From assembly GCA_034520565.1 (NCBI GenBank), contig JAXHNL010000002.1, positions 1,248,001 through 1,312,000 of the forward strand: a stretch of 64,000 nucleotides of DNA, in the 5' to 3' direction. Source of the DNA: Halodesulfurarchaeum sp. Its GTDB lineage: Archaea; Halobacteriota; Halobacteria; Halobacteriales; Halobacteriaceae. Numbering within the stretch: the first letter of the stretch is position 1; every line of letters begins with the position of its first letter. Below the pieces are notes generated by a model, which did not search any database, was not told the DNA's origin, and saw only the letters and a program-made list of their open reading frames with translations. The position numbers and the translations under genes are program-made. Below are positions 4,908 through 50,773 of the stretch, piece by piece.

Positions 4908-5717
4908 ATGGTCGAACTGTGTGCTCTGCTGGATGACATCGTTGCCGATCCCGATGCGCTCTTTCTCTTCTCACCGACAGGGTCACAGTACGATGACGCG
5001 TCGTCGGTCGAGGAGATGCCAGTGGTCGTCGTCGGCACGGAAAACGAAGTCGAAGCGACCGAATTCGTCGAAGTGCCACTGGCGTTCGACAGCGTGAAAG
5101 ATTACATTTACTTCGCGCTGGAGGGTGCGGCCGATCAGGAACTCGTCGAACCCGGTGACGAGGTACTTGCCGTCTTGAGCCTGATTGACGACGGGCGGGA
5201 CATGATCTCCCGAGTCAGGGTCAAGGAGGGCACACACGGCATTTACGACCTGTTCACGGACTCGCGAGCGGACCCGGACGTGCTTCGGGACGCCTTCGAC
5301 GTCGCCATCGAACTCGGGAGGAAGGGGCAAAAGGGCAAACCGGTCGGCGCCCTGTTCGTCGTGGGCGATGCGGGCAACGTCATGAACAAGTCCCGACCGC
5401 TCTCGTACAACCCCTTCGAGAAGTCCCACGTTCACGTCGGCGATCCAATCGTGAACGTGATGCTCAAGGAGTTCTCTCGGTTGGACGGCGCCTTCGTCGT
5501 TTCGGATTCGGGGAAAATCGTCTCGGCGTACCGGTATCTCGAACCCTCCGCCGAAGGAGTAGACATTCCCAAAGGACTGGGTGCCCGGCATATGGCTGCG
5601 GGCGCCATCACTCGGGATACGGGGGCCGTGGCGATCGCGCTCAGCGAAAGCGACGGGATGGTTCGGGCGTTCAAGGGCGGTGATCTGGTCCTCGAACTCG
5701 ATCCGGAGGAGTACTGA
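4908..5717 (+). CDS. dacZ: Diadenylate cyclase DacZ
   Basis: LDGAFVV and GLGARHMAA DAC motifs with an N-terminal pyruvate-kinase-C-like domain. Confidence 0.92.
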   Translation: MVELCALLDDIVADPDALFLFSPTGSQYDDASSVEEMPVVVVGTENEVEATEFVEVPLAFDSVKDYIYFALEGAADQELVEPGDEVLAVLSLIDDGRDMISRVRVKEGTHGIYDLFTDSRADPDVLRDAFDVAIELGRKGQKGKPVGALFVVGDAGNVMNKSRPLSYNPFEKSHVHVGDPIVNVMLKEFSRLDGAFVVSDSGKIVSAYRYLEPSAEGVDIPKGLGARHMAAGAITRDTGAVAIALSESDGMVRAFKGGDLVLELDPEEY

Positions 5718-6492
5718 ATGGTCGACGTGATCGCCGACTTCACGCTCGAAACCCGGTATCTCTGGGCCGCGGTCATCGTTGATCGGCGGGCTGCTCGGTG
5801 GTCACTTTTTCGGGCAACTCAATCGCCGGCTATTACGTGGATTGGGTGTCGACGAGGCTGTAGAGGGAACGAGTCTCGAGCGAACGGCCCGGAACTTCGG
5901 CACCGATACAGTCGCGATTCTCGCCCAGAGTACGGCCTGGTTGATTTACGGGTTTGCAGTGGTTTACAGTCTGCAGGTCGCCGATATCGTGGAAACGAGC
6001 GTGCTGTTGGCCCGGGGTGCTGACCTTCTCCCATCCTACATTCTCGCCACCCTGATCGTGATGGGTGGGTTGCTTCTCGGGGACAAAATGGAAGTCTCTG
6101 TGAACGAGCGACTCAAGGGGGTCAAGTTCCCTGAAGTCAGCGCTCGTCGGACGGGTCTTCCGGTACACGGTCGTATTCGTTGCGATACTTCTGGCACTCG
6201 CCCAAATCGGTGTCGCCGTCGGTGTTCTGTTGATCCTTCTCGGAGCCTATCTTTTCGCCGTCATCGTTCTCCTCACGACGGCACTGCACCAGCTTCTTGC
6301 CGCGGCCGGTGCCGGTCTGTATCTCTTGTTCTCACAACCATACACCATCGGCGATCAGGTTGCAATCGGGGAACACGAGGGCGTCGTACAAGAGATCGAC
6401 CTGTTTTCTACCTCGATCGAAAAGGATGGGCGGGTCTTTCTCGTGCCGAACCATCTCGTCCTCAAGAAGGGGGCGACGTTGATCCGCGAGTG
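5718..6492 (+). pseudogene. mscS: Mechanosensitive channel MscS-family protein with two frameshifts (~5780, ~6140)
   Basis: Hydrophobic segments and PYTIGDQVAIGEHEGVVQEIDL...LVPN are spread over three successive frames. Confidence 0.75.
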
Positions 6493-38542: not shown

Positions 38543-38731
38543 AGTGGATCACCGTTCCCACAGAGGGGCTTTCGCTCCCCCGCCGTTCGATCCTGAGGCT
38601 GGAAGCATCATCGACCCCTGTGAGGTGTATTGCTGAGTCGGCACCCCGTGCTTAAAAGCGTGTCCAAACGGGGGAGGGGCGGACAGCAATCGGGAAGACG
38701 GATTGCGAGGGAAACGCCCTTGCCCGACCGC

Positions 38732-41005
38732 ATGCAAGTGACGGCGATGGACTGGCAGCCGATTCAGGAACTTGTCCGGGAAGCTGCCAGTCACGACGAA
38801 CGCCGGCTTCTCGTGCTCGCCGGCGAATCGGGGCACTCCGAAGCGGTCCGTGGAGCCCTCGAAGCCGCGGATGCTGCGTTGGGCGACGGTTCGATATTCG
38901 ACGATTCGACTGTCGTTGGGCCTCCGTCGGGACTCCCCTGTGATCACCTCGCTCCAGACGACGTGGGCCAGCTGCTCGGCACGACGCGAACGGCAGTCGT
39001 TCTCGACTGTCGGGCGGCCTGCCGACCGAACGACCTCGGGCAGGTCGTCGGGGCCGTCGACGGTGGTGGGCTACTGGTCTTGTTGACGCCGCCACTCGGC
39101 GACTGGCCCTCTCGACGCGACGAGTTCGACGAGACACTGGCTGTCCCGCCGGACACCGTCGATGCCGTCACGGGCCACTTTCGCGACCGTCTGGTCGAAA
39201 CGCTCACCGTTCATCGGGGCGTCGCCATCGTCGACCTCGACGCCGACGAATTCGTTCGCGACGGGCTGACGGGACAGGCACCACGACGGGATCCTCCGCC
39301 GATCGAAACGCCAGCCGGGACGGAAGCGATTCCCGATCCACTGTTCGAGAGCTGTCTCACCCAGGATCAGGCCGACGCGCTCGCGGACCTCGCGGCGCTC
39401 GCGACCGGACCGACGGCAGCCGTACTCGAAGCCGATCGGGGACGCGGCAAATCGAGCGTAGCTGGCCTTCTCGCCGCCTGGTTCGTCGCGAGAGGGGAGC
39501 GAGTCGTGGTCACCGGGCCGAGCCGGTGGGCCGCAACGGCATTCTTCGAACGGATTCTGGAGGTCCTCCCGCCCCTCGATGGCGTCCGATCCGTCGACGG
39601 TTCACCGCCGAACCGGATTGTAGCCGCGAGCGGCGGCGAGATCGAGTTCGTCGCGGCCCAGGAAATGGAGTCCAAACTGGAATTGGCTGCCGTCCTCTTC
39701 GTCGAAGAGGCCGCCGCCCTCCCCGTCGCCCTGCTCGAATCGACGCTCTCGGTCCCGCGTGTTGCCTACACCACGACGGTCCACGGGTACGAGGGATCGG
39801 GCCGGGGGTTCGCGGTCCGGTTCCGCGACAGCCTCGCGGCAGCCCGTCACGACGTTCTCGATATCACGCTCGCCGAACCGATTCGCTACGCTGGTGGCGA
39901 CCCGGTCGAAGTGTGGGCCGCACGGGCGCTGCTGCTCGATGCCTCACCGGTTCCAGGCTCGCTGATCGAGGACGCCAGACCGGAGACGGTGAGGTATCTG
40001 GGACTCGATTCCGAGACGCTCCGTCGGGACGAACAGTTGCTCCGGGAGGTGTTTGGCCTGCTCGTGACGGCCCATTACCGGACCGAACCCGCGGATCTCG
40101 CCAGACTGCTCGACGGGTCGAACCTCGCCGTCCGGGCCCTCCTTCGGGACGGACACGTCGTTGCCGTGGCCCTAATCGCCCGGGAAGGGGGTCTTCCGCC
40201 CGAGACCCTCGAACGCGTCTCGCTCGGCGAGCGAATCCGGGGCAACATGCTCCCGGACGTTCTAATGAGCCAGTTACGGGACGAGGACGCCGGGCGGTTG
40301 GTCGGTATTCGGGTCGTTCGAATCGCCACCCATCACGCGGTTCGGTCACGGGGGCTGGGAAGTTACCTGCTCTCCAACGTCGAGGACGAGTTCGGGCCAG
40401 TTGTCGACTGGATCGGGACGGGATTCGGTGCGACCCCCAAACTCGTCTCCTTCTGGCAGGCAAACGGCTACGAGCCGATCCACCTCTCGACGAGCCGCAA
40501 TGAGCGCAGTGGGGAACACTCCGTGCTGATGCTTAAGCCCACAGCCGACCCCGGGAATGTCCTCGCCGACGCACATGGGCGTTGGTTCGGAACCAGAATT
40601 GGTGGTGTCCTCCAGGATTCACTCGAGGATCTCGACCCGGACGTCATTCGCGCAGTCCTGGACGCGGGCACTCACCCTCCGTCGTTGGCATTTTCGCCTC
40701 ACCGGTGGCGGGTCATCGCCGGCGCAGCCTTCGGTCCCGGCCTGTACAGCGTCGACCCAGAACCGTTTCGCACGCTTTCCCTCCACGGACTCGTCGATGG
40801 TGCGGTGGATCTGTCCGATCGGGAGGAGCGACTGTTGGTTCGCGGCCTGCTACAGGGGCATTCCTGGGATCGAGTCGCGGACGAACTCGATTTCGTCTCC
40901 GGGACCGCGGCGATGCGGGCCTTCGGGCGAGCGCTGCAACCGCTGGTCGAGGAATACGGTCCAGAAGCACTCGACACGTATCGGACCCGCTTCGAGTCGG
41001 CGTAA
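38732..41005 (+). CDS. tmcA: tRNA/rRNA cytidine acetyltransferase TmcA
   Basis: ADRGRGKS, TTVHGYEGSGRGF, EPIRY...DPVE, AHYRT, RIATH...GLGS; start approximate. Confidence 0.93.
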   Translation: MQVTAMDWQPIQELVREAASHDERRLLVLAGESGHSEAVRGALEAADAALGDGSIFDDSTVVGPPSGLPCDHLAPDDVGQLLGTTRTAVVLDCRAACRPNDLGQVVGAVDGGGLLVLLTPPLGDWPSRRDEFDETLAVPPDTVDAVTGHFRDRLVETLTVHRGVAIVDLDADEFVRDGLTGQAPRRDPPPIETPAGTEAIPDPLFESCLTQDQADALADLAALATGPTAAVLEADRGRGKSSVAGLLAAWFVARGERVVVTGPSRWAATAFFERILEVLPPLDGVRSVDGSPPNRIVAASGGEIEFVAAQEMESKLELAAVLFVEEAAALPVALLESTLSVPRVAYTTTVHGYEGSGRGFAVRFRDSLAAARHDVLDITLAEPIRYAGGDPVEVWAARALLLDASPVPGSLIEDARPETVRYLGLDSETLRRDEQLLREVFGLLVTAHYRTEPADLARLLDGSNLAVRALLRDGHVVAVALIAREGGLPPETLERVSLGERIRGNMLPDVLMSQLRDEDAGRLVGIRVVRIATHHAVRSRGLGSYLLSNVEDEFGPVVDWIGTGFGATPKLVSFWQANGYEPIHLSTSRNERSGEHSVLMLKPTADPGNVLADAHGRWFGTRIGGVLQDSLEDLDPDVIRAVLDAGTHPPSLAFSPHRWRVIAGAAFGPGLYSVDPEPFRTLSLHGLVDGAVDLSDREERLLVRGLLQGHSWDRVADELDFVSGTAAMRAFGRALQPLVEEYGPEALDTYRTRFESA

Positions 41006-41077
41006 TTGGGTCCGGAGTCCGGGGCAGGGAGCGGATATCCCTTTCAATCCACAACTGGTGACAGTTTCTAACTTCCT

Positions 41078-41104
41078 TGCTGCATACAACGCGCGTATCT
41101 TGCA
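41078..41104. repeat. 27-bp 10-7-10 site S1
   Basis: TGCTGCATAC-AACGCGC-GTATCTTGCA. Confidence 0.8.
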
Positions 41105-41290
41105 TGAGTACGCTATTTCTCGTCGGGCTTTCGTCCTGACAGTCGTCATGACGGTAAGGTACGTCGGCTGACGGGCAAACGACCGTCGGTGTACTCGCAG
41201 GCTGGGTCGGTCCATTCCACGAGGGGCTGCTGGCGCGCCAAGCCACAGGGTCAGATCTCGGTCGCACCGAGGCCGCAGCGGCCGTTGTCC

Positions 41291-41872
41291 TCAGCCCGGT
41301 TGGGGCCTGACCTGCCGGCCGACGAGTACGAGACTGCCGACGAGCAGGGTGACCGAGACCGGCAACAGTAACTGAAACGCAGTCAATAGCGTGCTCGACG
41401 CTTGGATCCCCAGCATGATCAGCACCACCGGGCCACAGCAGGCCGTCCCCGAGAGCAGCGCAGGAATACTCGCGAGGAACCCGCTCGACGAGCGGCCGAT
41501 GCCGCAGGCCTTGGGCTGCATCCACACCAAATAGGTCAGCGCGAGGTTCAGCCCCACTAGCAGGGCGATGGAACCGCCAAGCACGGTATTGAACGAGAAC
41601 AGGTAGGTGATTGGGCCGACGGTGACCCGGGCGATTGGCGTGAACATGAAGGGACCGAGTTCGGGCTGCAGGAACTTACCGAACGGGTCGGCGATGACCG
41701 TCATGCCGGTATTACCGAGGCCCGTGGCGAGATGATTGATCATCCAGAGGTAGACTGACAGGTAGACGGCCGACACAGCGCCGAAAACGACGGCGGCGTC
41801 GCGGCGGCGGAGCGCAAACATGGTGGCAGTGTGTGTCCGCCCAAACGCGGTCCGGACGCTGGCGACTGACAT
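41291..41872 (-). CDS. Four-TM membrane protein with C...CCGP motif
   Basis: Hydrophobic helices; PKACG...SGTACCGP. Confidence 0.8.
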   Translation of the reverse strand: MSVASVRTAFGRTHTATMFALRRRDAAVVFGAVSAVYLSVYLWMINHLATGLGNTGMTVIADPFGKFLQPELGPFMFTPIARVTVGPITYLFSFNTVLGGSIALLVGLNLALTYLVWMQPKACGIGRSSSGFLASIPALLSGTACCGPVVLIMLGIQASSTLLTAFQLLLPVSVTLLVGSLVLVGRQVRPQPG

Positions 41873-41873
41873 G

Positions 41874-42990
41874 TTACGCATAGGTGGTGGTCCCTGGATA
41901 GTAGCCCGCCCAGGCAAACCACATCGCGTCAAAGGTGTGGATGTGCGTGAGCGAGAGTGCGTCCGGCGCGTGGTCGGCCCCGTCCGGCCCGACGACCGTC
42001 CCGTCGTCGTATTCGAACGAGATCCCGTCGGGGTTTTCGTAGATGTAGGCCGTATCTAATCGATCGTCGTAGATGGCCACGACCGGCGTGTCACCGAGTG
42101 CGCCCGTCATGACGTGCTGGTCCCGGATGGCGTCCTTTCGGAAGGCCACGGCGCCGTCGGGTGCCCGCGCGCCCATGACGACAGTTTTGTCTTCGAATGT
42201 GTCCGGCCCCTCAAGCGAGGGGAACATTCCACCGCCGCTCCGGTAGTACCCCCCGAGGGGATTGTAAGAGCCGTAGGGATCGTTGCCGTAGTTCCTCGCG
42301 GAGCCGGTGTCCGTCGAAAGGACGCGCGTGTCGGGGTGTTGGGTCCGCCACCGGTCCCACGTGGTCCAGACGAGCCGGAACTCGCGCAACGAGTGGGTCC
42401 CCGGCGACGCGTTCCAGGGCCCCGGAATCGAGGTGGCCAGGATCTGGGGCCACCACGTTTCCGTCGCGCGGTCGTACATCACGAGGTTGTTGTTGATCAG
42501 CCGGCCGGAGACGCCGAAGGTCGTCGTCCCCCGCTCGAACCCCAGGACGGTTCCCGTAAGGGGGCAGTAGGTCACGCTCACCGGTTCGTCCCCGAGGGTA
42601 TCGTTGACGATCTCGTGCTGGGCGAGGATTTTCTGGGCGTAGACCTTCGTCTCGCCGTTCCGGACCACGCCGAACACTGGGTCACCGGGGTCGAGAAAGT
42701 CGACCGCGGACGGGTCGATGAACTGCGGGTCATCGATCGACGGGATGCCGTCCTTGGGTGGGCCACCGGACCGGGCCGCATCTCGGAGTTCGACGGGCGC
42801 CATTGGCAACGGGAGCTGTCGATCCGCCGTCGGTACCGCCGGCGACCCGTCTCCGGACTCTGATGGAGCCTGGGCAGACCCCGTTCGGTGTCGGCGTCCC
42901 CTGTTCCGGTGTATCCCTCCCGCTACTACATCCGGCAATCGCCGTGATACCTGCCACGGCGAGGAACTGGCGACGAAAAATGTGATTCAT
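41874..42990 (-). CDS. DUF3179 protein with Tat-lipoprotein signal; one frameshift near 42880
   Basis: N-terminal RRQFL...IAGC in one frame; GGPPKDGIPSIDDP, HEIVND, TYCPLTG, GVSG.L...NLVMYDR.T and WFAW in the next frame. Confidence 0.85.
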
Positions 42991-43087
42991 ATTATAAGAT
43001 TGGCGCTCTATCAGTTAACGGTTACACCAACGTGTGACATCTTTACACACTCGATGAAGCGTAAGGTATTCCCTTTCAGGAACACAC

Positions 43088-43114
43088 CGCTGACTACAGC
43101 CTCTACATCTTGCA
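43088..43114. repeat. 27-bp 10-7-10 site S2
   Basis: CGCTGACTAC-AGCCTCT-ACATCTTGCA, followed by linker GTCGGTTTCTGACAAC. Confidence 0.7.
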
Positions 43115-43153
43115 GTCGGTTTCTGACAACCTCTGATTAGATCTCACGGAGCG

Positions 43154-43180
43154 TGCTGAATACAACGCGCATATCTTGCA
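43154..43180. repeat. 27-bp 10-7-10 site S3
   Basis: TGCTGAATAC-AACGCGC-ATATCTTGCA; 25/27 identical to S1. Confidence 0.8.
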
Positions 43181-43463
43181 AAGCAATCGCTGAGCGCAGT
43201 TCGAAATGATGCCAAGTCTTGGAGATCAAGAACTTATAATTGCGAATCATGCTCTCCGGCTTCTTCCACTCAATAAAATCTCCGAAACTCTCGATTATCC
43301 TCGTAACTTTCCCAGTTTCGTACGCAATCATTTCCAAAATTATCGATATTTGTTTCGTCTCATCGTTCGGCCGATCGAAGTCTACCACTTTGAAGTGGAA
43401 CTCCACATCTTGGTCTCGAATTCGATTGTGTCGCTACCCGTCTCGATTTCAGATACTAGAATG

Positions 43464-43708
43464 GGCCTTGTTTAGACGCTAGCGAAAGACGCTCTAAGCG
43501 CGGTTTCGATAGTGAAAATCGGGAAAATGTATTGAGTGTGTACGTCGAAAGCCGAGACAGGAGAGCGGTAGAACCCGGGCAAAACCCGCTAAATTGGCCG
43601 GATGGTCTGAATCGGCTCCAAGATGTCGCGGTCCTTGTCCGACTGTCGATGGTTGACTTCGGCAGGGGCGGCGTTCATACAGGTGAATTCAAGCGTCTAA
43701 ACACGGCC
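43464..43708. mobile_element. 245-bp MITE related to the IS5 element at 47251
   Basis: TIRs GGCCTTGTTTAGACG / CGTCTAAACACGGCC; flanks CTAGAATG and CAAGAATG form an imperfect 8-bp TSD; no transposase. Confidence 0.8.
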
Positions 43709-43772
43709 CAAGAATGACTAATGGGCAGGTTCTCGGAAAAACTATTAACTATTAACCAGTTATTACCAGCCT

Positions 43773-46700
43773 ATGGACGAGGAAATCCAATCGAGACTTT
43801 TTCTGGGGAATAAAATAACCCGACGTAACCTTCTTCGGTCTACAACTGGTGCGTTTCTATTTTTGAACTCGCCCCTCGTTTCGGCTGCTTCTGGCACCAG
43901 TACGAATAGAACTAGTAAACAATTGAAATTAGACGAAAATTCACAGATCACGAAACCGTCCTATCTTCCGTATCCATCTGATCCTTTTATATTGGGTCAA
44001 TTTGCAGACCAATATTTGAGTTCTACCGACCGCCAGGGATGGGAGCCAGTGCCGATAAATGAGGAGATCCACACCCTTCTTCGTTTGCACTTGGATGTCC
44101 TTGATAGTGCTCCACTGGCATCGTTTGAAAATGGTGAGTTACTTCCCAACTCCTCTGCTTCCAATGCACTCGACTTTTCGCTTCGAACCGACGTGCCCGC
44201 AACGGCGGGTCGAAATACCACGATCGAAATGGGTCGCGTTGAAGAGGGGTCCATGGAACCAATCCTGTCAGAACACGATTGGACGCAACCAAATGGTGAG
44301 CCTGTCACGTCCGTTTCGGAGAATCTAGCGGAGACGATAGCGGGCGAAGATCAGTATATGGAATGGACATTTACTACAAATGGAATTCCGTCTGCATTCG
44401 CACCCCTCGGTTTACATTTGATGATAAAATCGACAACAGAACGACTAGAACAGGGATTTGCTGGGTTTTTTGTAGATATGCTTTTTTTGTTCCATGGGCT
44501 AGATTTCTCTGACTGGGCGACTACTGCCTTCACGAAGCATTTGAGTTCGCTCCCACAAAGCCGTCTCGAAGAACTCGATATAAAAGCTCCTTCAGAATTC
44601 AAGGTGAAGGAGTATTTAAAGCAAGAAAACCTCACACCCGAGTCCGACATCAACCCTCTGGAAGATCCTGTGTTTCGAGAGTTCATCGTTCATAACCATC
44701 TTGGGGTCCGAGAGTTCTTTGCGGACTATCGTGACGCTGTATCAGGGTCTTTTCCGGACCGTAGCACAGCAGATGAGATTGCCCTCTGGGCGAACCAGTT
44801 CGTCGGGAGTTTATACAATCCCCAGGCCGTCAATGTCTATGTATCCGACTTTCTCGATCTGATTAACACAGAACATTTCCCCACGGTCAACGAACCCTCA
44901 GACCACAAATATAAACTCTTAAAGGCAAACGGCCGATTCTCGAAGCCTGTTATCGCCAAAGCGACGATAACCAAATCACCCGGCTCTGAGGAATATCCCG
45001 GATTTGACCCGACAAAGTCATATCCAATGCTCCAAAGGTATCAGGTCGCTGAGGCCTTCGCAAATGGTGCACGCCTGAAGATACCATTGTCCCCACGTGG
45101 AGCACACTCTACAAACGAGTCAATCACTCAGTGGATTCAGGCCGATGGAAATGTCCCCTCCGAATTGCAAGAGTTCATCGATTTTGTTTGGGCCCACAAA
45201 CGATTCCTAACCGATGAGGAGCCGAACCACCCGGTCGCCGTCATTTGGTCTCTCCCCGACCGAATGTTCCGGAAACTTCCACAATGGGATATTGAGCCAA
45301 GAGAGCAGTCACAATCGGGGGTGTCTTCGTTCAATGGAACGACTACGCTCCTCCGTGAGGCCCAAATTCCATACACTGTGCTCACATTTGGACACCCAAG
45401 ACTTTGGGAGGACACCGATTTACTCGAAGGTCTACAGGAGTATGAAGTGATCATCCTCCCCAATGTCCGCTCCCTCTCGGAGGCCCAACTATCTGCACTT
45501 TCCGATTACGTAGACCAGGGCGGGCACCTGGTCGCAAATGGTCAAACGCCAGATAGAACTGCAAATTTCGCCCCTCTAAATAATCTCGATGGGCTCTTCG
45601 AGAAAGATAGAGCAATCGTTCTATCGGGAGACCCAGGCTCATATCGGGAGGAGAAGGGTCAGGCAAAGGGATCCCTTTATTCTGAACTTGAGAAAATTGA
45701 TGTCAACCCAATAATACCGAACGATAATACCAGCCTTAGCGTTAATATTCGGCAACAATCTGAAAATAACCGGACCATTGTACATTTGTTGAATCACGAC
45801 TACTCACGACAAACGGACTCCTTCGACCCAATTAGAGATATCCCGGTCACGGTGCCGAACCTTGGTCACGATGTATCGGCGGTACAGTTCTTCTCGCCCC
45901 AAAAATCGAAAACTCTCGATTTCGAAAGTGGCGGAAATAATATCCAGTTCACGGTTCCAGAAATCGTTGATTGGGGATTCGTCGTCCTTGCGACCTCCGA
46001 ATCCAGCATTTTCCCGACCGAGAACAAAAATGATGCGCAAAAAAAGGTTCAGCAGGCTGAAGAAACACTCGCCAAAGCCACCGACGAAGGATTTGACTGG
46101 TCGCCAGAGTCCACTATCGCTGAAGCCGAACTCGAGAATGCACGGATAGCTTTCGACCACCAGGCGTACGGTCAAGCAGTGGAAGCTGCCGAGGCAGCAC
46201 ATTCCGCAGCCGCCGAAACGACATATCCGCGACCGACGATTGCACTTGACCTCGCGCATTCTCAGTCTTCTTCCTATGACGGTGAGCTACAAGGTGAGCC
46301 ACTTGAAGATCTCAAGAATGAGTTTCAACATTTGGATTATCGACTCATCGATTCGTGGAGCGAGGATGAACTCGCCGATGTCGACGTACTCATCGTACCC
46401 CCAGCATTACGTTACAAGGGAGAAAGTTTTGGCTTTAAAGATAGCGAAATCGACCAGATCGTTTCATTTGTTGAGGGAGGTGGCAGTCTTGCGATCTTGG
46501 CAAGGGGGGCGGTTGCACGGGATATTGATGACCTAACCGAACAATTTGGCTACCGGTTTGACGGGTCCTCAATCCAATTTCCAGAGGGAATAGAAGAGTA
46601 TGCCACGGTCACCGATCCACTTCATCCATTAACACGGGGAGTAAGGCGGTTTTACGTAGATTGGGGAACGCCCATAACGCAGATGCCCGATGATGCAACG

Positions 46701-47147
46701 GTACTCGCCACAGTTGGTAAGGAGACCGGTGCATGGCTACACGACGAAACACCACATGACACCCGCCAAGAAGGAGAGAAATTATTGCAGAAAGACCCGA
46801 TATATGCGGTCTCAAAGCAGGGACTTGGCCGGGTTGCTGTTCTGGGTCAATGGGCGTATTTATACCATGAGGGATTGCACCACTGGAAAGCACTAACCGG
46901 CAATCTCGTTTCTTTCCTCGGGCAATCAGCTGCTGCCACCCAAGCTGAGTCAGTGGAAACCAACCCGACGTCGACCGACGTTTCCAATGAGACTACGGAG
47001 ACCACCCCAACACCGACCGACGTTTCCAATGAGACTACGGAGACCACTGATGAAACTGCTCCAGGGTTTGGGTTTGGGACAGGAATTGCTGGTCTTGTCG
47101 GGACAGGATACTTTCTCCATCGATTACGCGACACAGACCAAGACTAA
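43773..47147 (+). CDS. 1124-aa Tat-exported, PGF-CTERM-anchored protein; GH42/GHL-like core plus GATase-like domains
   Basis: RRNLL Tat motif; C-terminal Thr-rich linker, APGFG, TM helix and HRLRD; visibly AT-richer than flanking core genes. Confidence 0.8.
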   Translation: MDEEIQSRLFLGNKITRRNLLRSTTGAFLFLNSPLVSAASGTSTNRTSKQLKLDENSQITKPSYLPYPSDPFILGQFADQYLSSTDRQGWEPVPINEEIHTLLRLHLDVLDSAPLASFENGELLPNSSASNALDFSLRTDVPATAGRNTTIEMGRVEEGSMEPILSEHDWTQPNGEPVTSVSENLAETIAGEDQYMEWTFTTNGIPSAFAPLGLHLMIKSTTERLEQGFAGFFVDMLFLFHGLDFSDWATTAFTKHLSSLPQSRLEELDIKAPSEFKVKEYLKQENLTPESDINPLEDPVFREFIVHNHLGVREFFADYRDAVSGSFPDRSTADEIALWANQFVGSLYNPQAVNVYVSDFLDLINTEHFPTVNEPSDHKYKLLKANGRFSKPVIAKATITKSPGSEEYPGFDPTKSYPMLQRYQVAEAFANGARLKIPLSPRGAHSTNESITQWIQADGNVPSELQEFIDFVWAHKRFLTDEEPNHPVAVIWSLPDRMFRKLPQWDIEPREQSQSGVSSFNGTTTLLREAQIPYTVLTFGHPRLWEDTDLLEGLQEYEVIILPNVRSLSEAQLSALSDYVDQGGHLVANGQTPDRTANFAPLNNLDGLFEKDRAIVLSGDPGSYREEKGQAKGSLYSELEKIDVNPIIPNDNTSLSVNIRQQSENNRTIVHLLNHDYSRQTDSFDPIRDIPVTVPNLGHDVSAVQFFSPQKSKTLDFESGGNNIQFTVPEIVDWGFVVLATSESSIFPTENKNDAQKKVQQAEETLAKATDEGFDWSPESTIAEAELENARIAFDHQAYGQAVEAAEAAHSAAAETTYPRPTIALDLAHSQSSSYDGELQGEPLEDLKNEFQHLDYRLIDSWSEDELADVDVLIVPPALRYKGESFGFKDSEIDQIVSFVEGGGSLAILARGAVARDIDDLTEQFGYRFDGSSIQFPEGIEEYATVTDPLHPLTRGVRRFYVDWGTPITQMPDDATVLATVGKETGAWLHDETPHDTRQEGEKLLQKDPIYAVSKQGLGRVAVLGQWAYLYHEGLHHWKALTGNLVSFLGQSAAATQAESVETNPTSTDVSNETTETTPTPTDVSNETTETTDETAPGFGFGTGIAGLVGTGYFLHRLRDTDQD
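46965..47048 (+). repeat. Intragenic 42-bp tandem repeat encoding PT(S/P)TDVSNETTET(T)
   Basis: CGACCGACGTTTCCAATGAGACTACGGAGACCAC occurs twice. Confidence 0.85.
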
Positions 47148-47250
47148 CTCCGTATTATAAAACCGCCCTGGGTAATTTACCAACGCGTACTAAGTAAAGA
47201 GCAATTTCCTTTCGCAATCCCAAGAAAGTATTTGCTGAATACATCCTCTG

Positions 47251-48234
47251 GGCCTTGTTTAGACGCCTGATTTCACCGGTTTGAACCCTCAAACGCGCGT
47301 TCGATGTTTCGGACCGCGGATTTCATGACAAGTTCACGGAATTGGCCGAACCAGGTTCTCGACCAGAGCGTATCTCCGTATCTGCGTCGGAAACCGAAAA
47401 ACACCGATTCAGCGTTTGAACGTTGGTGATACGCCCGATCATGGATAAGCAAATTTCTCGCCCATCCTCGCATTCCAGGATCTCGCTGCGGAATCAGCGG
47501 TGTGATACTTTCCGCACGCAACCGTGTTCGAAGTTCCTCCCAGTCGTAGCCCTTATCCGCCGCGACAGTGCCTAAAACGTCGAGATTCCGCACTAGCACT
47601 TGCCAGCCGACCTGTGTATCGTGCGGTTGTTTCATCGAGCAATGTATATCTAGGATTGCACTTGTCTTGCAATCGATAAGTACTGACGCTTTGACCGCTT
47701 CAAATGTGTAGTCGGTTCGTTCGGCGTAGTGCTGGCTAGCTTGGACGCGATCAACGCCGGTCGCATCGATTGCCTGCACCTCGCCGAGCTCGTATAGATC
47801 GACCGAAAAATCGAGCATTGCTCGCCACCGCTTCATCGGAATCTCTTGCTTTCTCGCGCAAACAGTCGAGAAGTGTGGTAGCGTCTCAGGCGGTTAAACC
47901 AAGTAATATTCGCGACTTTCGGCATTTCTCGCAGTACATCCATCAGCTTCCGGTAATCGTGGTGATCAAGATACTCTTTCAGTCCCTGAATAGCGAGAAT
48001 TACCCAGTCGGCATAGCCATATTTTCCTGGTCGAAAAGCCGGATCTGGCCGACCAACGACGGCTTTTTGTGCGAGCGATACCACCTTCTTCGTGAAGCGG
48101 GCGGTCTTGGTTAGCACATCAAAACCGACCCGCTTCACTTCCTAGTAATTTTGGTAATTCTTTAGAGTTACTAGAACCCTGATAATGGTGGTACAAGCTC
48201 TAGTCTGCTCGAATTTGATCGTCTAAACAAGGCC
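47251..48234 (-). mobile_element. IS5-family (ISH1/ISH9-like) insertion sequence, 984 bp
   Basis: Perfect 15-bp TIRs GGCCTTGTTTAGACG; 9-bp TSD CATCCTCTG at 47242-47250 and 48235-48243. Confidence 0.93.
47273..48138 (-). pseudogene. IS5-family DDE transposase, frameshifted near 47880-47910
   Basis: AIDATG, ADKGYD and YHQRSNAESVF in ORF 47273-47836; N-terminal part lies in another frame. Confidence 0.85.
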
Positions 48235-48422
48235 CATCCTCTGTATTCAGCAGTCCGGTTCTATCAACAGCTGAATAAGCCACTCGAAATTCCGCTGCAT
48301 TGGCACAGTTATTTCACTCCCAGACCATCCCCTCCTACGGAACTTCTTCTCGCCCCTCGAAGGTATCCAATCCGCTCACGAACCGGCCCGAACCCTTTGT
48401 CGTTCGAACCGAATATGCAATT

Positions 48423-48884
48423 GTGTTCGGCAACCCGACCAGCCGACTGGACCGACTCCAACACACGCTCGCCTTCGCGAACACGCCCGAAGGACGCAGA
48501 ATTGTCCTCTGGCGGCGGATCGCAGCGCCACCGGAGCGAGTCTGGGAACTCCTCGTCGACACCCGCCGGTGGCCCGAATGGGGGCCGAGTGTGCTCGACG
48601 TCGAAACCCAGTCCCGTCGAATCGAGACGGGATCGACCGGTCGAGTTCGAACGATCTTCGGGCTGTGGCTCCCATTCACCGTCACGAGGGTATCCGAATG
48701 GGCCTGGGCCTGGCGAATCGGCCCGGTCGAGGCAACTGGGCATCGGGTTATTCCAGGCGACTCCTCGTGTCGGGTCGGGTTCGAGGTCCCCCTGTACGCG
48801 GTTCCGTATCTCATCGTCTGTTGGTGGGCGCTTCGTCGGATCGAGTCGCTTGCAACAACGGCCGCTACTGACAACACAGATTGA
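48423..48884 (+). CDS. SRPBCC family protein
   Basis: APPERVWELLVDTRRWPEWGPSV; start uncertain. Confidence 0.75.
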   Translation: MFGNPTSRLDRLQHTLAFANTPEGRRIVLWRRIAAPPERVWELLVDTRRWPEWGPSVLDVETQSRRIETGSTGRVRTIFGLWLPFTVTRVSEWAWAWRIGPVEATGHRVIPGDSSCRVGFEVPLYAVPYLIVCWWALRRIESLATTAATDNTD

Positions 48885-48945
48885 CCGGAGCTTGTGAGGT
48901 GGGAGACGTGGAACCGAGCAGGGAGACGGCAAAACAGCGAGGTGA

Positions 48946-50700
48946 CTATGGGTGGGTGAAGTACGTGACAGTCTCGTCGTCCGTTCGGCCATCGATCCGG
49001 GCGAAGCCGATCCGCTCGAACTGGACGACCTCGTCAGCGTCGTGATCCTCGAGACCCGGCTCGGCCCGACCGGTCACGATCCCATCCATCGTGTGCATCC
49101 GAACCGGGACCGACGCCGCGGCCGACACCCAGTGGATCACGTCGACGCCGCCCTCGGTGACCACGTCGAGGTCGTCGCGGGTCGCAACTAATTTCTCGCC
49201 GGCCAGGCGAACGGCTCCGAATCCCTTGAGCCAGACGCGTTCGCCCTCGGGTGGCAGATCGTCGACCTCCAGCAGCACCTCGTCTCCGACGGGGATTTCG
49301 CGGACCCCCCGCTCCTCGTGGTCGGGATGCAGCGGCGGGTTCGCGACGTCCGGACCGCCCTCGATCGGGAGGGCGATTGCTTCCAGCGCTGCGGGGTCTG
49401 CGGTTGGATACGGCTCGATCGACTCGCGGACGAGGAAGCGCCGATCGGTCTCGTCGTCGATCAGTTCCCGATTCCGGGCGTAAACGGTGCTCATCGAGAG
49501 GTCGACGTTGCTCGTCGAGGTGCCGAGGCCGATCATCGCCGAGACCAGGGCTTCCCCCTCGATTCCCCGGCGTCGAACACTCTTGATCGTGGGGGCGCGT
49601 GGGTCGTCCCACCCGTCGAGGTCGCCCGCGTCGATCCGCTCCTTGATCGTCGAGGTGCTCATGGAGACGTCGTAGTCCTCGACCTGAACGTGCCCCCAGT
49701 GGATCACTTCCGGGTACGTCCAGTCGAAGTACTCATAGACGAAGCGCTGGCGCTTTTCCGAATCCTGGAGGTCGATCCCCCGGATGATGTGTGTTACTCC
49801 TGTCAGGTGGTCGTCGATCCCGGACTGGAAATCGAGCATCGGCCAGCAGCGGTACTCGCTCGCGGCCTCGCGGGGGTGGGGCGTGTCGATCATCCGGAAG
49901 GCGACCCAGTCCCGGAGCGCCGGGTTGGGATGCTCGATGTCGGTTTTTACCCGGAGGACCATCTCGCCCGGGTCGTACCCGCCTTTGACCATTTCCTCGA
50001 ACTCCTCGCGGACCGCCGCTGGGTCTTTCCCCCGGTGCTCGCAGGGTTCGCCAGCGTTTTTCAGCTCCGAAAAGGTCTCGCCCGCACAGGAGCAGGTGTA
50101 GGCACCGCCCCGCTCGATGAGGGCCTGGGCGTGCTCGTAGTAGGTTTCGAGGCGATCGCTCGCCCGGATCACGTCGTCCGGCTCGAATCCCAGGTACTCG
50201 ATGTCCGAGAGGATCTGACCGTAGGCCTCGAGGTCGGGGCGTTTCGTTTCCGGATCCGTGTCGTCGAAGCGGCAGAGAAACGAGCCGTCGTATCGGTCCT
50301 TGTAGGTCCCGATCACGGCCGGCATCCGGGCGTGCCCGAGGTGCCAGGGTCCGTTCGGGTTCGGGGCGACTCGCATTCGGACCTCGCCGGGTTCGGCGTT
50401 TGGCAGATCCGGGAGTGCATGCTCGTCTTCGTCGTCTTCGGTCTCGAGTTCCTCGATGGCCTCGGGGTCGAGTTCGGCGAGGCGGTCCCGCTGTGTGTCT
50501 CGATCGAGTTCGTTCACCCTGGCGACGACCGGGCCGCCGATTTGCGGGATTTCGTCCCCGTGTTCGCGGAAGACGGGGTTCTCTCCCATGAGTGGCCCCA
50601 TTATCGCCCCGATCTGGGCGTCGCTCTCGTGTTTGAGCGCGTTGTGGAGGGCGTGTTTTTCGATTTCCCGTTCGATCCGCTCCCGAAGCTCGTCGTCCAT
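48946..50700 (-). CDS. gltX: Glutamate--tRNA ligase
   Basis: MRVAPNPNGPWHLGH, RFDDTDP, GWDDPR, QFERIGF. Confidence 0.97.
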   Translation of the reverse strand: MDDELRERIEREIEKHALHNALKHESDAQIGAIMGPLMGENPVFREHGDEIPQIGGPVVARVNELDRDTQRDRLAELDPEAIEELETEDDEDEHALPDLPNAEPGEVRMRVAPNPNGPWHLGHARMPAVIGTYKDRYDGSFLCRFDDTDPETKRPDLEAYGQILSDIEYLGFEPDDVIRASDRLETYYEHAQALIERGGAYTCSCAGETFSELKNAGEPCEHRGKDPAAVREEFEEMVKGGYDPGEMVLRVKTDIEHPNPALRDWVAFRMIDTPHPREAASEYRCWPMLDFQSGIDDHLTGVTHIIRGIDLQDSEKRQRFVYEYFDWTYPEVIHWGHVQVEDYDVSMSTSTIKERIDAGDLDGWDDPRAPTIKSVRRRGIEGEALVSAMIGLGTSTSNVDLSMSTVYARNRELIDDETDRRFLVRESIEPYPTADPAALEAIALPIEGGPDVANPPLHPDHEERGVREIPVGDEVLLEVDDLPPEGERVWLKGFGAVRLAGEKLVATRDDLDVVTEGGVDVIHWVSAAASVPVRMHTMDGIVTGRAEPGLEDHDADEVVQFERIGFARIDGRTDDETVTYFTHP

Positions 50701-50773
50701 TATGGGATGGGACTCGGCGGGCAAGCAAAGTGGTTGGGATTTTCCCCGTCGTCTCGATCACCGAGGGACATCC

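Follow-up and report, generated by a model that had tools for sequence, protein, structure and literature searches.

Between the tmcA and gltX genes of a Halodesulfurarchaeum sp. genome lies an island that is divided by short palindromic sites, and comparison with other genomes indicates that it probably belongs, as an orphan array, to a site-specific cassette system of haloarchaea with two alternating classes of core site. We analyzed a stretch of 64,000 nt (assembly GCA_034520565.1, contig JAXHNL010000002.1, positions 1,248,001 to 1,312,000 of the forward strand), referred to here as the window. The genome to which it belongs (G000) is represented by a 1.86-Mb assembly with 62.6% GC and a completeness of 80.7%.

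Two classes of 27-bp site form a composite

The sites in question, S1 to S4, are 27 bp long and consist of two inverted 10-bp arms around a 7-nt spacer (10-7-10). Their positions and sequences are exactly as given in an initial annotation of this DNA, and the spacings it reported, 2076 bp between S1 and S3 and 4145 bp between S2 and S4, are correct. The four sites are not chance occurrences. A single 27-mer pattern, allowing up to 3 mismatches, finds S1 and S3 in the window, where 0 matches are expected (100 shuffles). Across the 1.86-Mb genome there are 22 places where both arms (at least 15 of 20 matches) flank a 7-nt spacer, versus 0 to 3 for spacers of 4 to 6 or 8 to 10 nt; the site family is therefore real and its spacing fixed.

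Two classes can be distinguished: class A, with a spacer ending in CTCT (S2 and S4), and class B, with a spacer ending in GCGC (S1 and S3). At 4 of the 7 spacer positions the two classes have different bases. The initial annotation read these spacers as matching pairs, each enclosing a cassette. The spacers of S1 and S3 are indeed identical and those of S2 and S4 nearly so, but they represent class consensus sequences rather than cassette-specific pairs: S1 and S3 share AACGCGC because it is the class B consensus, and it is present at three further places in this genome.

The real unit is a composite of ∼93 bp, comprising an A site, a linker of 39 to 41 nt, and a B site. BLAST and alignment within the genome identified S2, the following 39 nt, and S3 as one such composite, and this genome holds 7 full copies. 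Among 47 full composites of other genomes the linker is 41 nt in 38, by a column definition that includes flanking bases. We built a sequence-only model of the composite, R1, counting matches at E 1e-3 or better, and it matches the S2-S3 composite at 43089 to 43179 with 89.9 bits. The 10-7-10 anatomy originally described is correct for the individual sites, but the unit is the A-linker-B composite and the sites form two classes, not pairs. Likewise, the 16-bp linker that had been noted beside three sites is the first part of the 39-nt S2-S3 linker; S1 and S4/S5 have this linker only in shortened form. A fifth site, S5, fares poorly: R1 reaches 48232 to 48284 (18.2 bits, model positions 7 to 59 only) by way of the right half of A and the linker, and S5 is not matched as a B site.

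The left arms of the sites are nearly invariant and the spacer cores are conserved in sequence, while the right arms are freely variable. No covariation between arms was detected: 67.0% of cells were paired, versus 66.0% in shuffled alignments, and the observed value was reached in 21 of 500 shuffles. Hence the palindromes stem from two kinds of half-site that are conserved, rather than from a hairpin that is maintained, and the sites fit the description of double-stranded, protein-binding core sites. We also considered the composite as a miniature inverted-repeat transposable element (MITE) or DDE element; its outer arms are inverted repeats, but a target duplication was found at 0 of the 7 copies in this genome.

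Homology between genomes breaks inside the sites

Blocks of homology between genomes have their limits inside the site spacers. One cassette, common to two loci (L056 and L133), is 95% identical over 798 bp, from B position 14 (GCGC) to the next A spacer. Its flanks are unlike on both sides, and the next A site is followed by a recombinase gene in L133 and by a linker in L056. Two further cassettes, each common to a pair of genomes, are 90 to 92% identical from B position 13/14 onward, with the B left arm, linker, and A site only ∼50% alike. In all, 206 of 520 block ends fall inside 27-bp sites, which make up 1.3% of bases (133 blocks, 184 loci), a count that is dominated by ∼28 recombinase units compared all against all and that comes from loci chosen for containing sites or recombinase. 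The recombinase units of different genomes are alike from approximately A position 13 to 15 to B position 17 to 27 and unlike outside these limits. Neighboring cargo segments also differ between genomes, and cargo has therefore been reassorted. Among the 133 blocks there was no pair of an empty and an occupied junction. With inverted arms around an asymmetric spacer, to which the homology breaks map, the sites are candidate core sites of the simple tyrosine-recombinase type (lox, FRT, or dif).

A small tyrosine recombinase is encoded between A and B sites

Clustering of the open reading frames (ORFs) in 93 site loci revealed a 234-aa protein in three loci, each time bracketed by sites, and no large recurrent recombinase. 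The protein has the features of the tyrosine recombinase superfamily and consists of the catalytic domain only, lacking an N-terminal core-binding domain. It matches PF00589 alone (residues 28 to 219, 54.8 bits versus a cut-off of 27.1). In 22 sequences R61/R65, K124, R184, W207, and Y216 are invariant, H181 is present in at least 90%, and three cysteines are conserved. The predicted structure (predicted local distance difference test score of 81) has its best fold match in XerA, with a template modeling score of 0.60, and also matches the Tn1549 integrase and IntI4. A phmmer search against solved structures gave no match, and profile search alone retrieved relatives, the nearest of them XerA proteins. 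Scores against named families are low: 52 bits for XerA (cut-off 220), far under the cut-offs for XerC/D, 19.1 bits for the integron integrase model TIGR02249 (cut-off 265), and 17.9 bits for the FimB/FimE-type model PRK09870 (cut-off 221).

Of 401 genomes of the class, 76 carry the recombinase, and these represent 37 of 90 genera. Many copies have internal stops. The gene is also present on 26 plasmid records, where it is labeled merely “site-specific integrase.” An A or B site lies 31 to 92 nt from an end of the gene in 28 of 30 loci, the background of the site scan being 0.086 matches per kb. Two fixed layouts occur, namely A, reversed gene, B (9 complete) and A, forward gene, B (7 complete). 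Two recombinase subgroups were apparent in L172 to L200: copies 78 to 99% identical to the query are reversed, and copies 72 to 76% identical are forward. The recombinase units sit within composite arrays, with the gene between A and B, and the gene thus occupies the place of the linker. Composites are present in 5 of 5 relatives with a recombinase copy of at least 60% identity, versus 13 of 36 others (hypergeometric p 0.011, calculated by hand, with kin not independent). With same-strand arrays, in-site breakpoints, a bracketed recombinase gene in other genomes, and none found in this one, the initial proposal of crossover sites served by a recombinase encoded elsewhere is supported.

Other integrases were examined as candidates for the array recombinase. 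Generic PF00589 integrases in four genomes are not next to arrays, and an integrase inside a plasmid cluster of genome G019 is without flanking sites. A 391-aa integrase ORF in the present genome (L007, G000:C2:522721-527704) is flanked by two 10-7-10 palindromes that are weaker and have spacers of neither class, and it may belong to an unrelated integrated element.

Distribution and organization of the arrays

The motif scan suggested by the initial annotation extends the family well beyond this genome with its full composites: R1 matches 18 of 41 related genomes, in 11 of 30 genera. An exact scan for the B motif, with one genome per species, gave at least 80 records; among those listed, 76 are haloarchaeal, from more than 30 genera, and include chromosomes and plasmids. 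A viral collection gave one B-motif match.

Within 83 loci, neighboring composites less than 6 kb apart form 73 same-strand pairs and 5 opposite-strand pairs, with a median spacing of 993 bp. In a simple site scan, 228 of 283 steps between successive sites on one strand lead from one class to the other (A to B or B to A). The A-to-B steps include 77 of 60 to 72 nt and 14 of 700 to 1000 nt, and the B-to-A steps have a median of 845 nt. The cargo that follows B is diverse and unrelated, including sensor kinases, a phosphate transporter, an antitoxin/toxin pair, regulators, and tiny membrane proteins. Many downstream ORFs on the same strand start 52 to 97 nt past B. Solo B sites, such as S1, are common.

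Labeled by eye, the most frequent large neighbors in the 93 site loci are sensor histidine kinases (18 loci), followed by HTH_10/Bat-type regulators (7 loci). TnpB-like genes occur in a few loci. One cassette (L021, ∼5600 to 6100, G019:C1) carries genes that, named by eye from sequence, encode an AbrB/MazE-like antitoxin followed by a MazF/PemK-like toxin. Chromosomal integron arrays also carry toxin-antitoxin pairs.

An IS5-family lineage inserts into the spacers

S4 is interrupted by an insertion sequence (IS) placed exactly in its spacer. The element has terminal repeats of 16 bp, and the 7 bp duplicated at the target are the spacer itself. A DDE transposase match, terminal inverted repeats, and target duplication place this element in the IS5 family. 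A second copy in this genome, 84% identical, occupies another A spacer. Across the loci, 12 of 19 IS or MITE ends lie directly against an A or B spacer; these loci were picked for having sites, but the exact register cannot stem from that choice. An IS5-family lineage thus targets the 7-nt spacers. A MITE with terminal repeats like those of the IS lies in the cargo 2 segment of the window. In metagenome run X3, which belongs to another study, one contig passes directly from 43455 to 43709. This contig represents the empty site, and the MITE insertion is therefore a natural polymorphism.

The island between tmcA and gltX

The features of the island are collected in Table 1. In 8 of 10 congeners that have both genes, tmcA adjoins gltX at a distance of 3 to 260 bp, and the whole of 41006 to 48945 is therefore inserted in the present genome. 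The island is built from three cargo segments, in the order linker remnant and S1 (B), cargo 1, S2 (A)-linker-S3 (B), cargo 2, S4 (A, split by the IS), short linker and S5, and cargo 3. The cargo 2 segment comprises a possible small ORF, the MITE, and a gene for a PGF-CTERM protein. Cargo 2 lies in a low-GC stretch (45 to 52% GC), for which no DNA relative was found among 400 genomes of the class, and the SRPBCC gene of cargo 3 is absent from the tmcA-gltX gap in the congeners examined. The DUF3179 gene pair of cargo 1 was considered as evidence of mobility and set aside as uninformative, as it is common in this order at no more than 71% DNA identity.

Table 1. Sites, mobile elements, and genes in and around the tmcA-gltX island of the window
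Feature	Position	Strand	Remarks
tmcA, tRNA cytidine acetyltransferase	38630..41005	+	Left island border; Pfam PF05127, PF13718, PF08351
Shortened linker remnant before S1	41060-41077	+	No A site upstream; outside R1 match
S1, class B, solo	41078-41104	+	Spacer AACGCGC; R1 match 41078-41103, model positions 67-92, 17.6 bits
Cargo 1a, membrane protein	41291..41932	-	Weak MerT-like match, PF02411 19.8 bits, below cut-off; normal GC
Cargo 1b, DUF3179 protein	41874..42938	-	PF11376, E 2e-89
S2, class A	43088-43114	+	Spacer AGCCTCT; first part of full composite
Linker of S2-S3 composite, 39 nt	43115-43153	+	Aligned with 6 other copies in this genome
S3, class B	43154-43180	+	Spacer AACGCGC; last part of composite
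Possible 89-aa cargo ORF	43206..43475	+	Genehood uncertain; starts 26 nt past S3, runs into MITE; no Pfam family
MITE, 246 bp	43463..43708		Terminal repeats as in IS; flanking 7-bp duplication, one mismatch
Cargo 2, 1124-aa secreted protein	43773..47147	+	PGF-CTERM anchor, TIGR04126 21.2 bits, just below cut-off
S4, class A, left arm and spacer copy	47233-47249	+	Spacer ATCCTCT
IS5-family IS	47250..48235	-	Reading frame split in two; NF033579 142.5 bits (cut-off 140), PF01609
S4, second spacer copy and right arm	48236-48252	+	Site whole once IS 47250-48235 is removed
Shortened 16-nt linker, then S5	48253-48296	+	S5, decayed, doubtful B-like palindrome with 8-nt spacer
Cargo 3, SRPBCC/polyketide-cyclase-like protein	48300..48884	+	PF10604; true start probably further downstream
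gltX	48946..50724	-	Right island border; Pfam PF00749

In the closest congener (G011; L028, G011:C10:34500-46500), the same tmcA-gltX junction holds a different insert of 6.3 kb with no composites, and the junction is therefore a repeated insertion point. Inside a gene of this insert lies a related copy of the IS5-family element. Over 40900 to 48400, the contigs of 4 metagenome runs showed no S1-S3 or S2-S4 joint, but contigs cannot reveal rare circles, and this result counts neither for nor against their formation. Contigs of run X3, which has low depth, match pieces of the low-GC PGF-CTERM cargo between 43709 and 47043, with 2 to 6 differences per 200 to 280 bases. Within cargo 2, two tandem copies of 42 bp (79% alike) lie at 46946 to 47029, in a Thr/Pro-rich stretch before the PGF-CTERM anchor.

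Mechanism and alternative explanations

Based on these observations we propose an arrangement in which an A site is followed by a linker of 39 to 41 nt or the 234-aa recombinase gene, then by B, cargo, and the next A. The recombinase would bind the half-sites, and strands would be exchanged inside the spacers of two A sites or of two B sites. A stretch between two like sites could then be excised as a circle or inserted at another like site; alternatively, it could be swapped by a double crossover at one B and one A site. We infer three points from the arrangement of sites, gene, and breakpoints: the action of this recombinase on the A and B sites, the restriction of pairing to sites of one class, and the position of strand exchange.

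Several observations weigh against this reading. The recombination event itself was not observed, the case being one of sequence comparison, and the make-up of the block-end count noted above limits its weight. In the two cassette pairs with 90 to 92% identity, the right-hand limit of homology is 33 to 50 nt beyond the stop codon, where there is no canonical A site but at best a decayed palindrome. The recombinase family was not found in the present genome, as far as this assembly is complete, nor in G019 (99% complete, 14 composites). With no such gene found, the array in the window counts as an orphan; it may be inert now or be served in trans. When distant homologs (39 to 46% identity; G021, G022, and G040) are counted, the co-occurrence of recombinase and composites is weak, with 5 genomes having both, 3 the recombinase only, 13 composites only, and 20 neither. 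The linker shows no significant likeness to the flanks of the recombinase gene (9.8 versus 9.2 in shuffles), which leaves descent of the composite from the recombinase unit without support. Cargo 1 in the window is on the strand opposite to its sites. Finally, a 1.7-kb A-to-B interval in L023 (5286 to 7014, G019:C2) holds an unrelated 298-aa gene. By eye, the product of this gene looks like an OB-fold single-strand-binding protein, standing in place of a linker or recombinase.

We considered four other explanations. The one that survives best, which we nevertheless regard as unlikely, is that the junction module is mobile and the cargo is not. An IS-like tyrosine-recombinase element, made up of the right half of A, the recombinase, and the left half of B, with the 93-bp composite as its miniature, would insert into solo B-like targets at position 13/14, and the reshuffling of cargo would be a by-product. 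The limits of homology of the recombinase units agree with such an element, as does the A-to-B layout that composite and recombinase unit have in common, and removal of the module would leave a solo-B-like site of the kind frequently seen. However, the A and B spacers mismatch at more than half of their positions, and classical tyrosine recombinases are not known to tolerate an overlap with 4 of 7 positions mismatched. The reassortment of neighboring cargo, the lack of empty and occupied pairs among the blocks, the failure of the linker to resemble the recombinase flanks, and composite borders without target duplications also argue against it.

Less probable still is use of the sites by the host chromosome-dimer recombinase XerA, in the way that pdif sites are used by XerC/XerD, with the small recombinase a frequent passenger. 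Arrays do occur in genomes without the small recombinase (G000 and G019), the arm-spacer-arm plan is that of Xer sites, and among solved structures XerA proteins come closest to the small recombinase. A passenger, however, would hardly explain the placement of sites at fixed distances from the recombinase gene, and the sites are 10-7-10 in direct orientation, not 11-6-11 and alternating.

We give little credence to the composite as a regulatory module, either an operator pair or a portable promoter for downstream genes. The distance from B to many same-strand ORFs would suit a promoter, the half-sites are conserved as sequence and not as structure, as operators are, and kinases and regulators are frequent neighbors. 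Set against this, homology blocks break inside the spacers, the sites bracket a recombinase gene, an IS lineage targets the spacers, the accessory genes downstream have no relation to one another and lie in low-GC islands, and cargo 1 of the window faces the other way. Least credible is a role of the palindromes as single-stranded hairpins, in DNA or in RNA (integron attC, IS200/IS605 ends, or a small RNA). Each site could fold into a stem of 10 bp and a loop of 7 nt, and TnpB genes occur in a few loci; however, the arms do not covary, near-invariant left arms face freely varying right arms, and no Rfam family matches the sites at E up to 1.

Relation to known systems

The initial annotation called the system pdif/integron-like. 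The system works like an integron or pdif array yet belongs to neither, as it does not have the set of features that defines either of them. As in integrons, including clusters of attC sites lacking integron-integrases (CALINs), same-strand arrays of short sites separate mostly single, diverse, and often small genes, the recombinase is of the tyrosine family, and orphan arrays exist in genomes without the recombinase. IS1111-attC elements specialize on attC sites, a parallel to the spacer-targeting IS5 lineage. Unlike attC sites, which keep structure and not sequence, the haloarchaeal sites are conserved in sequence without covariation. The arrays alternate two site classes where integrons have one, the 234-aa recombinase consists of the catalytic domain only and has no IntI-type extra domain (consistent with its TIGR02249 score), and its gene lies inside the array, between A and B, not at one end beside attI.

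The pdif and Xer-dif systems share the inverted arms and short asymmetric spacer, modules that are bounded by sites and often have no recombinase nearby, and XerA proteins as the nearest structural relatives of the recombinase. They differ in geometry (11-6-11, a 28-bp site, versus 10-7-10), in orientation (pdif modules alternate in inverted orientation, whereas 73 of 78 adjacent pairs here are direct), and in that the arrays described here appear to have a dedicated recombinase family without an N-terminal core-binding domain. Cre/lox and Flp/FRT likewise have palindromic arms around a spacer of 7 to 8 nt that sets compatibility, and in laboratory cassette exchange two incompatible spacer classes flank each segment. 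Such heterospecific Cre/lox and Flp/FRT pairs are a laboratory design, whereas the haloarchaeal arrangement is natural and found class-wide in chromosomal and megaplasmid arrays, where exchange would likewise be by double crossover. The FimB/FimE invertases are similar in size (∼200 to 234 aa), have a reduced N-terminal domain, and give the weak PRK09870 match; the score is far below the cut-off, and the arrays are direct rather than an inverted pair around a promoter.

We searched the literature on haloarchaeal cassettes, integrons, and tyrosine recombinases and found no description of the sites or the recombinase, although paper supplements might list the family. A Halobacteria-specific “Arch1” group of simple recombinases is named in a section of PMC8138268 that gives no function for it, and PMC5861418 concerns SNJ2-type integrases. 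The arm 10-mer, searched as text in the literature, returned unrelated primers only. The system looks like an undescribed archaeal counterpart of the bacterial gene-cassette systems. Haloarchaea exchange genes at very high rates, yet the literature searched contains no account of an integron-like cassette platform in these organisms.

Implications for haloarchaeal genome evolution

We put forward a wider proposal tentatively, and with clearly less assurance than the reading of the window itself: that this is a natural, class-wide cassette-exchange platform of Halobacteria with two mutually incompatible, alternating site classes. Segments of cargo, from B to A, and segments of junction, from A to B and including a recombinase gene or not, would each be exchanged through double crossovers or travel as circles, a catalytic-domain-only tyrosine recombinase with a cysteine cluster would do the work, and a site-specific IS5 lineage would parasitize the sites. 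Such a platform would be a main route by which accessory genes pass between chromosomes and megaplasmids of different genera.

If this is correct, it would supply a concrete and testable mechanism for the building of haloarchaeal accessory islands, as well as a means of annotating them; composites also break assemblies. The compact recombinase, with two natural and apparently incompatible site classes, would be a potential genetic tool in halophiles. It would also mean that cassette arrays arose independently of integron chemistry, on double-stranded sites that are conserved in sequence.

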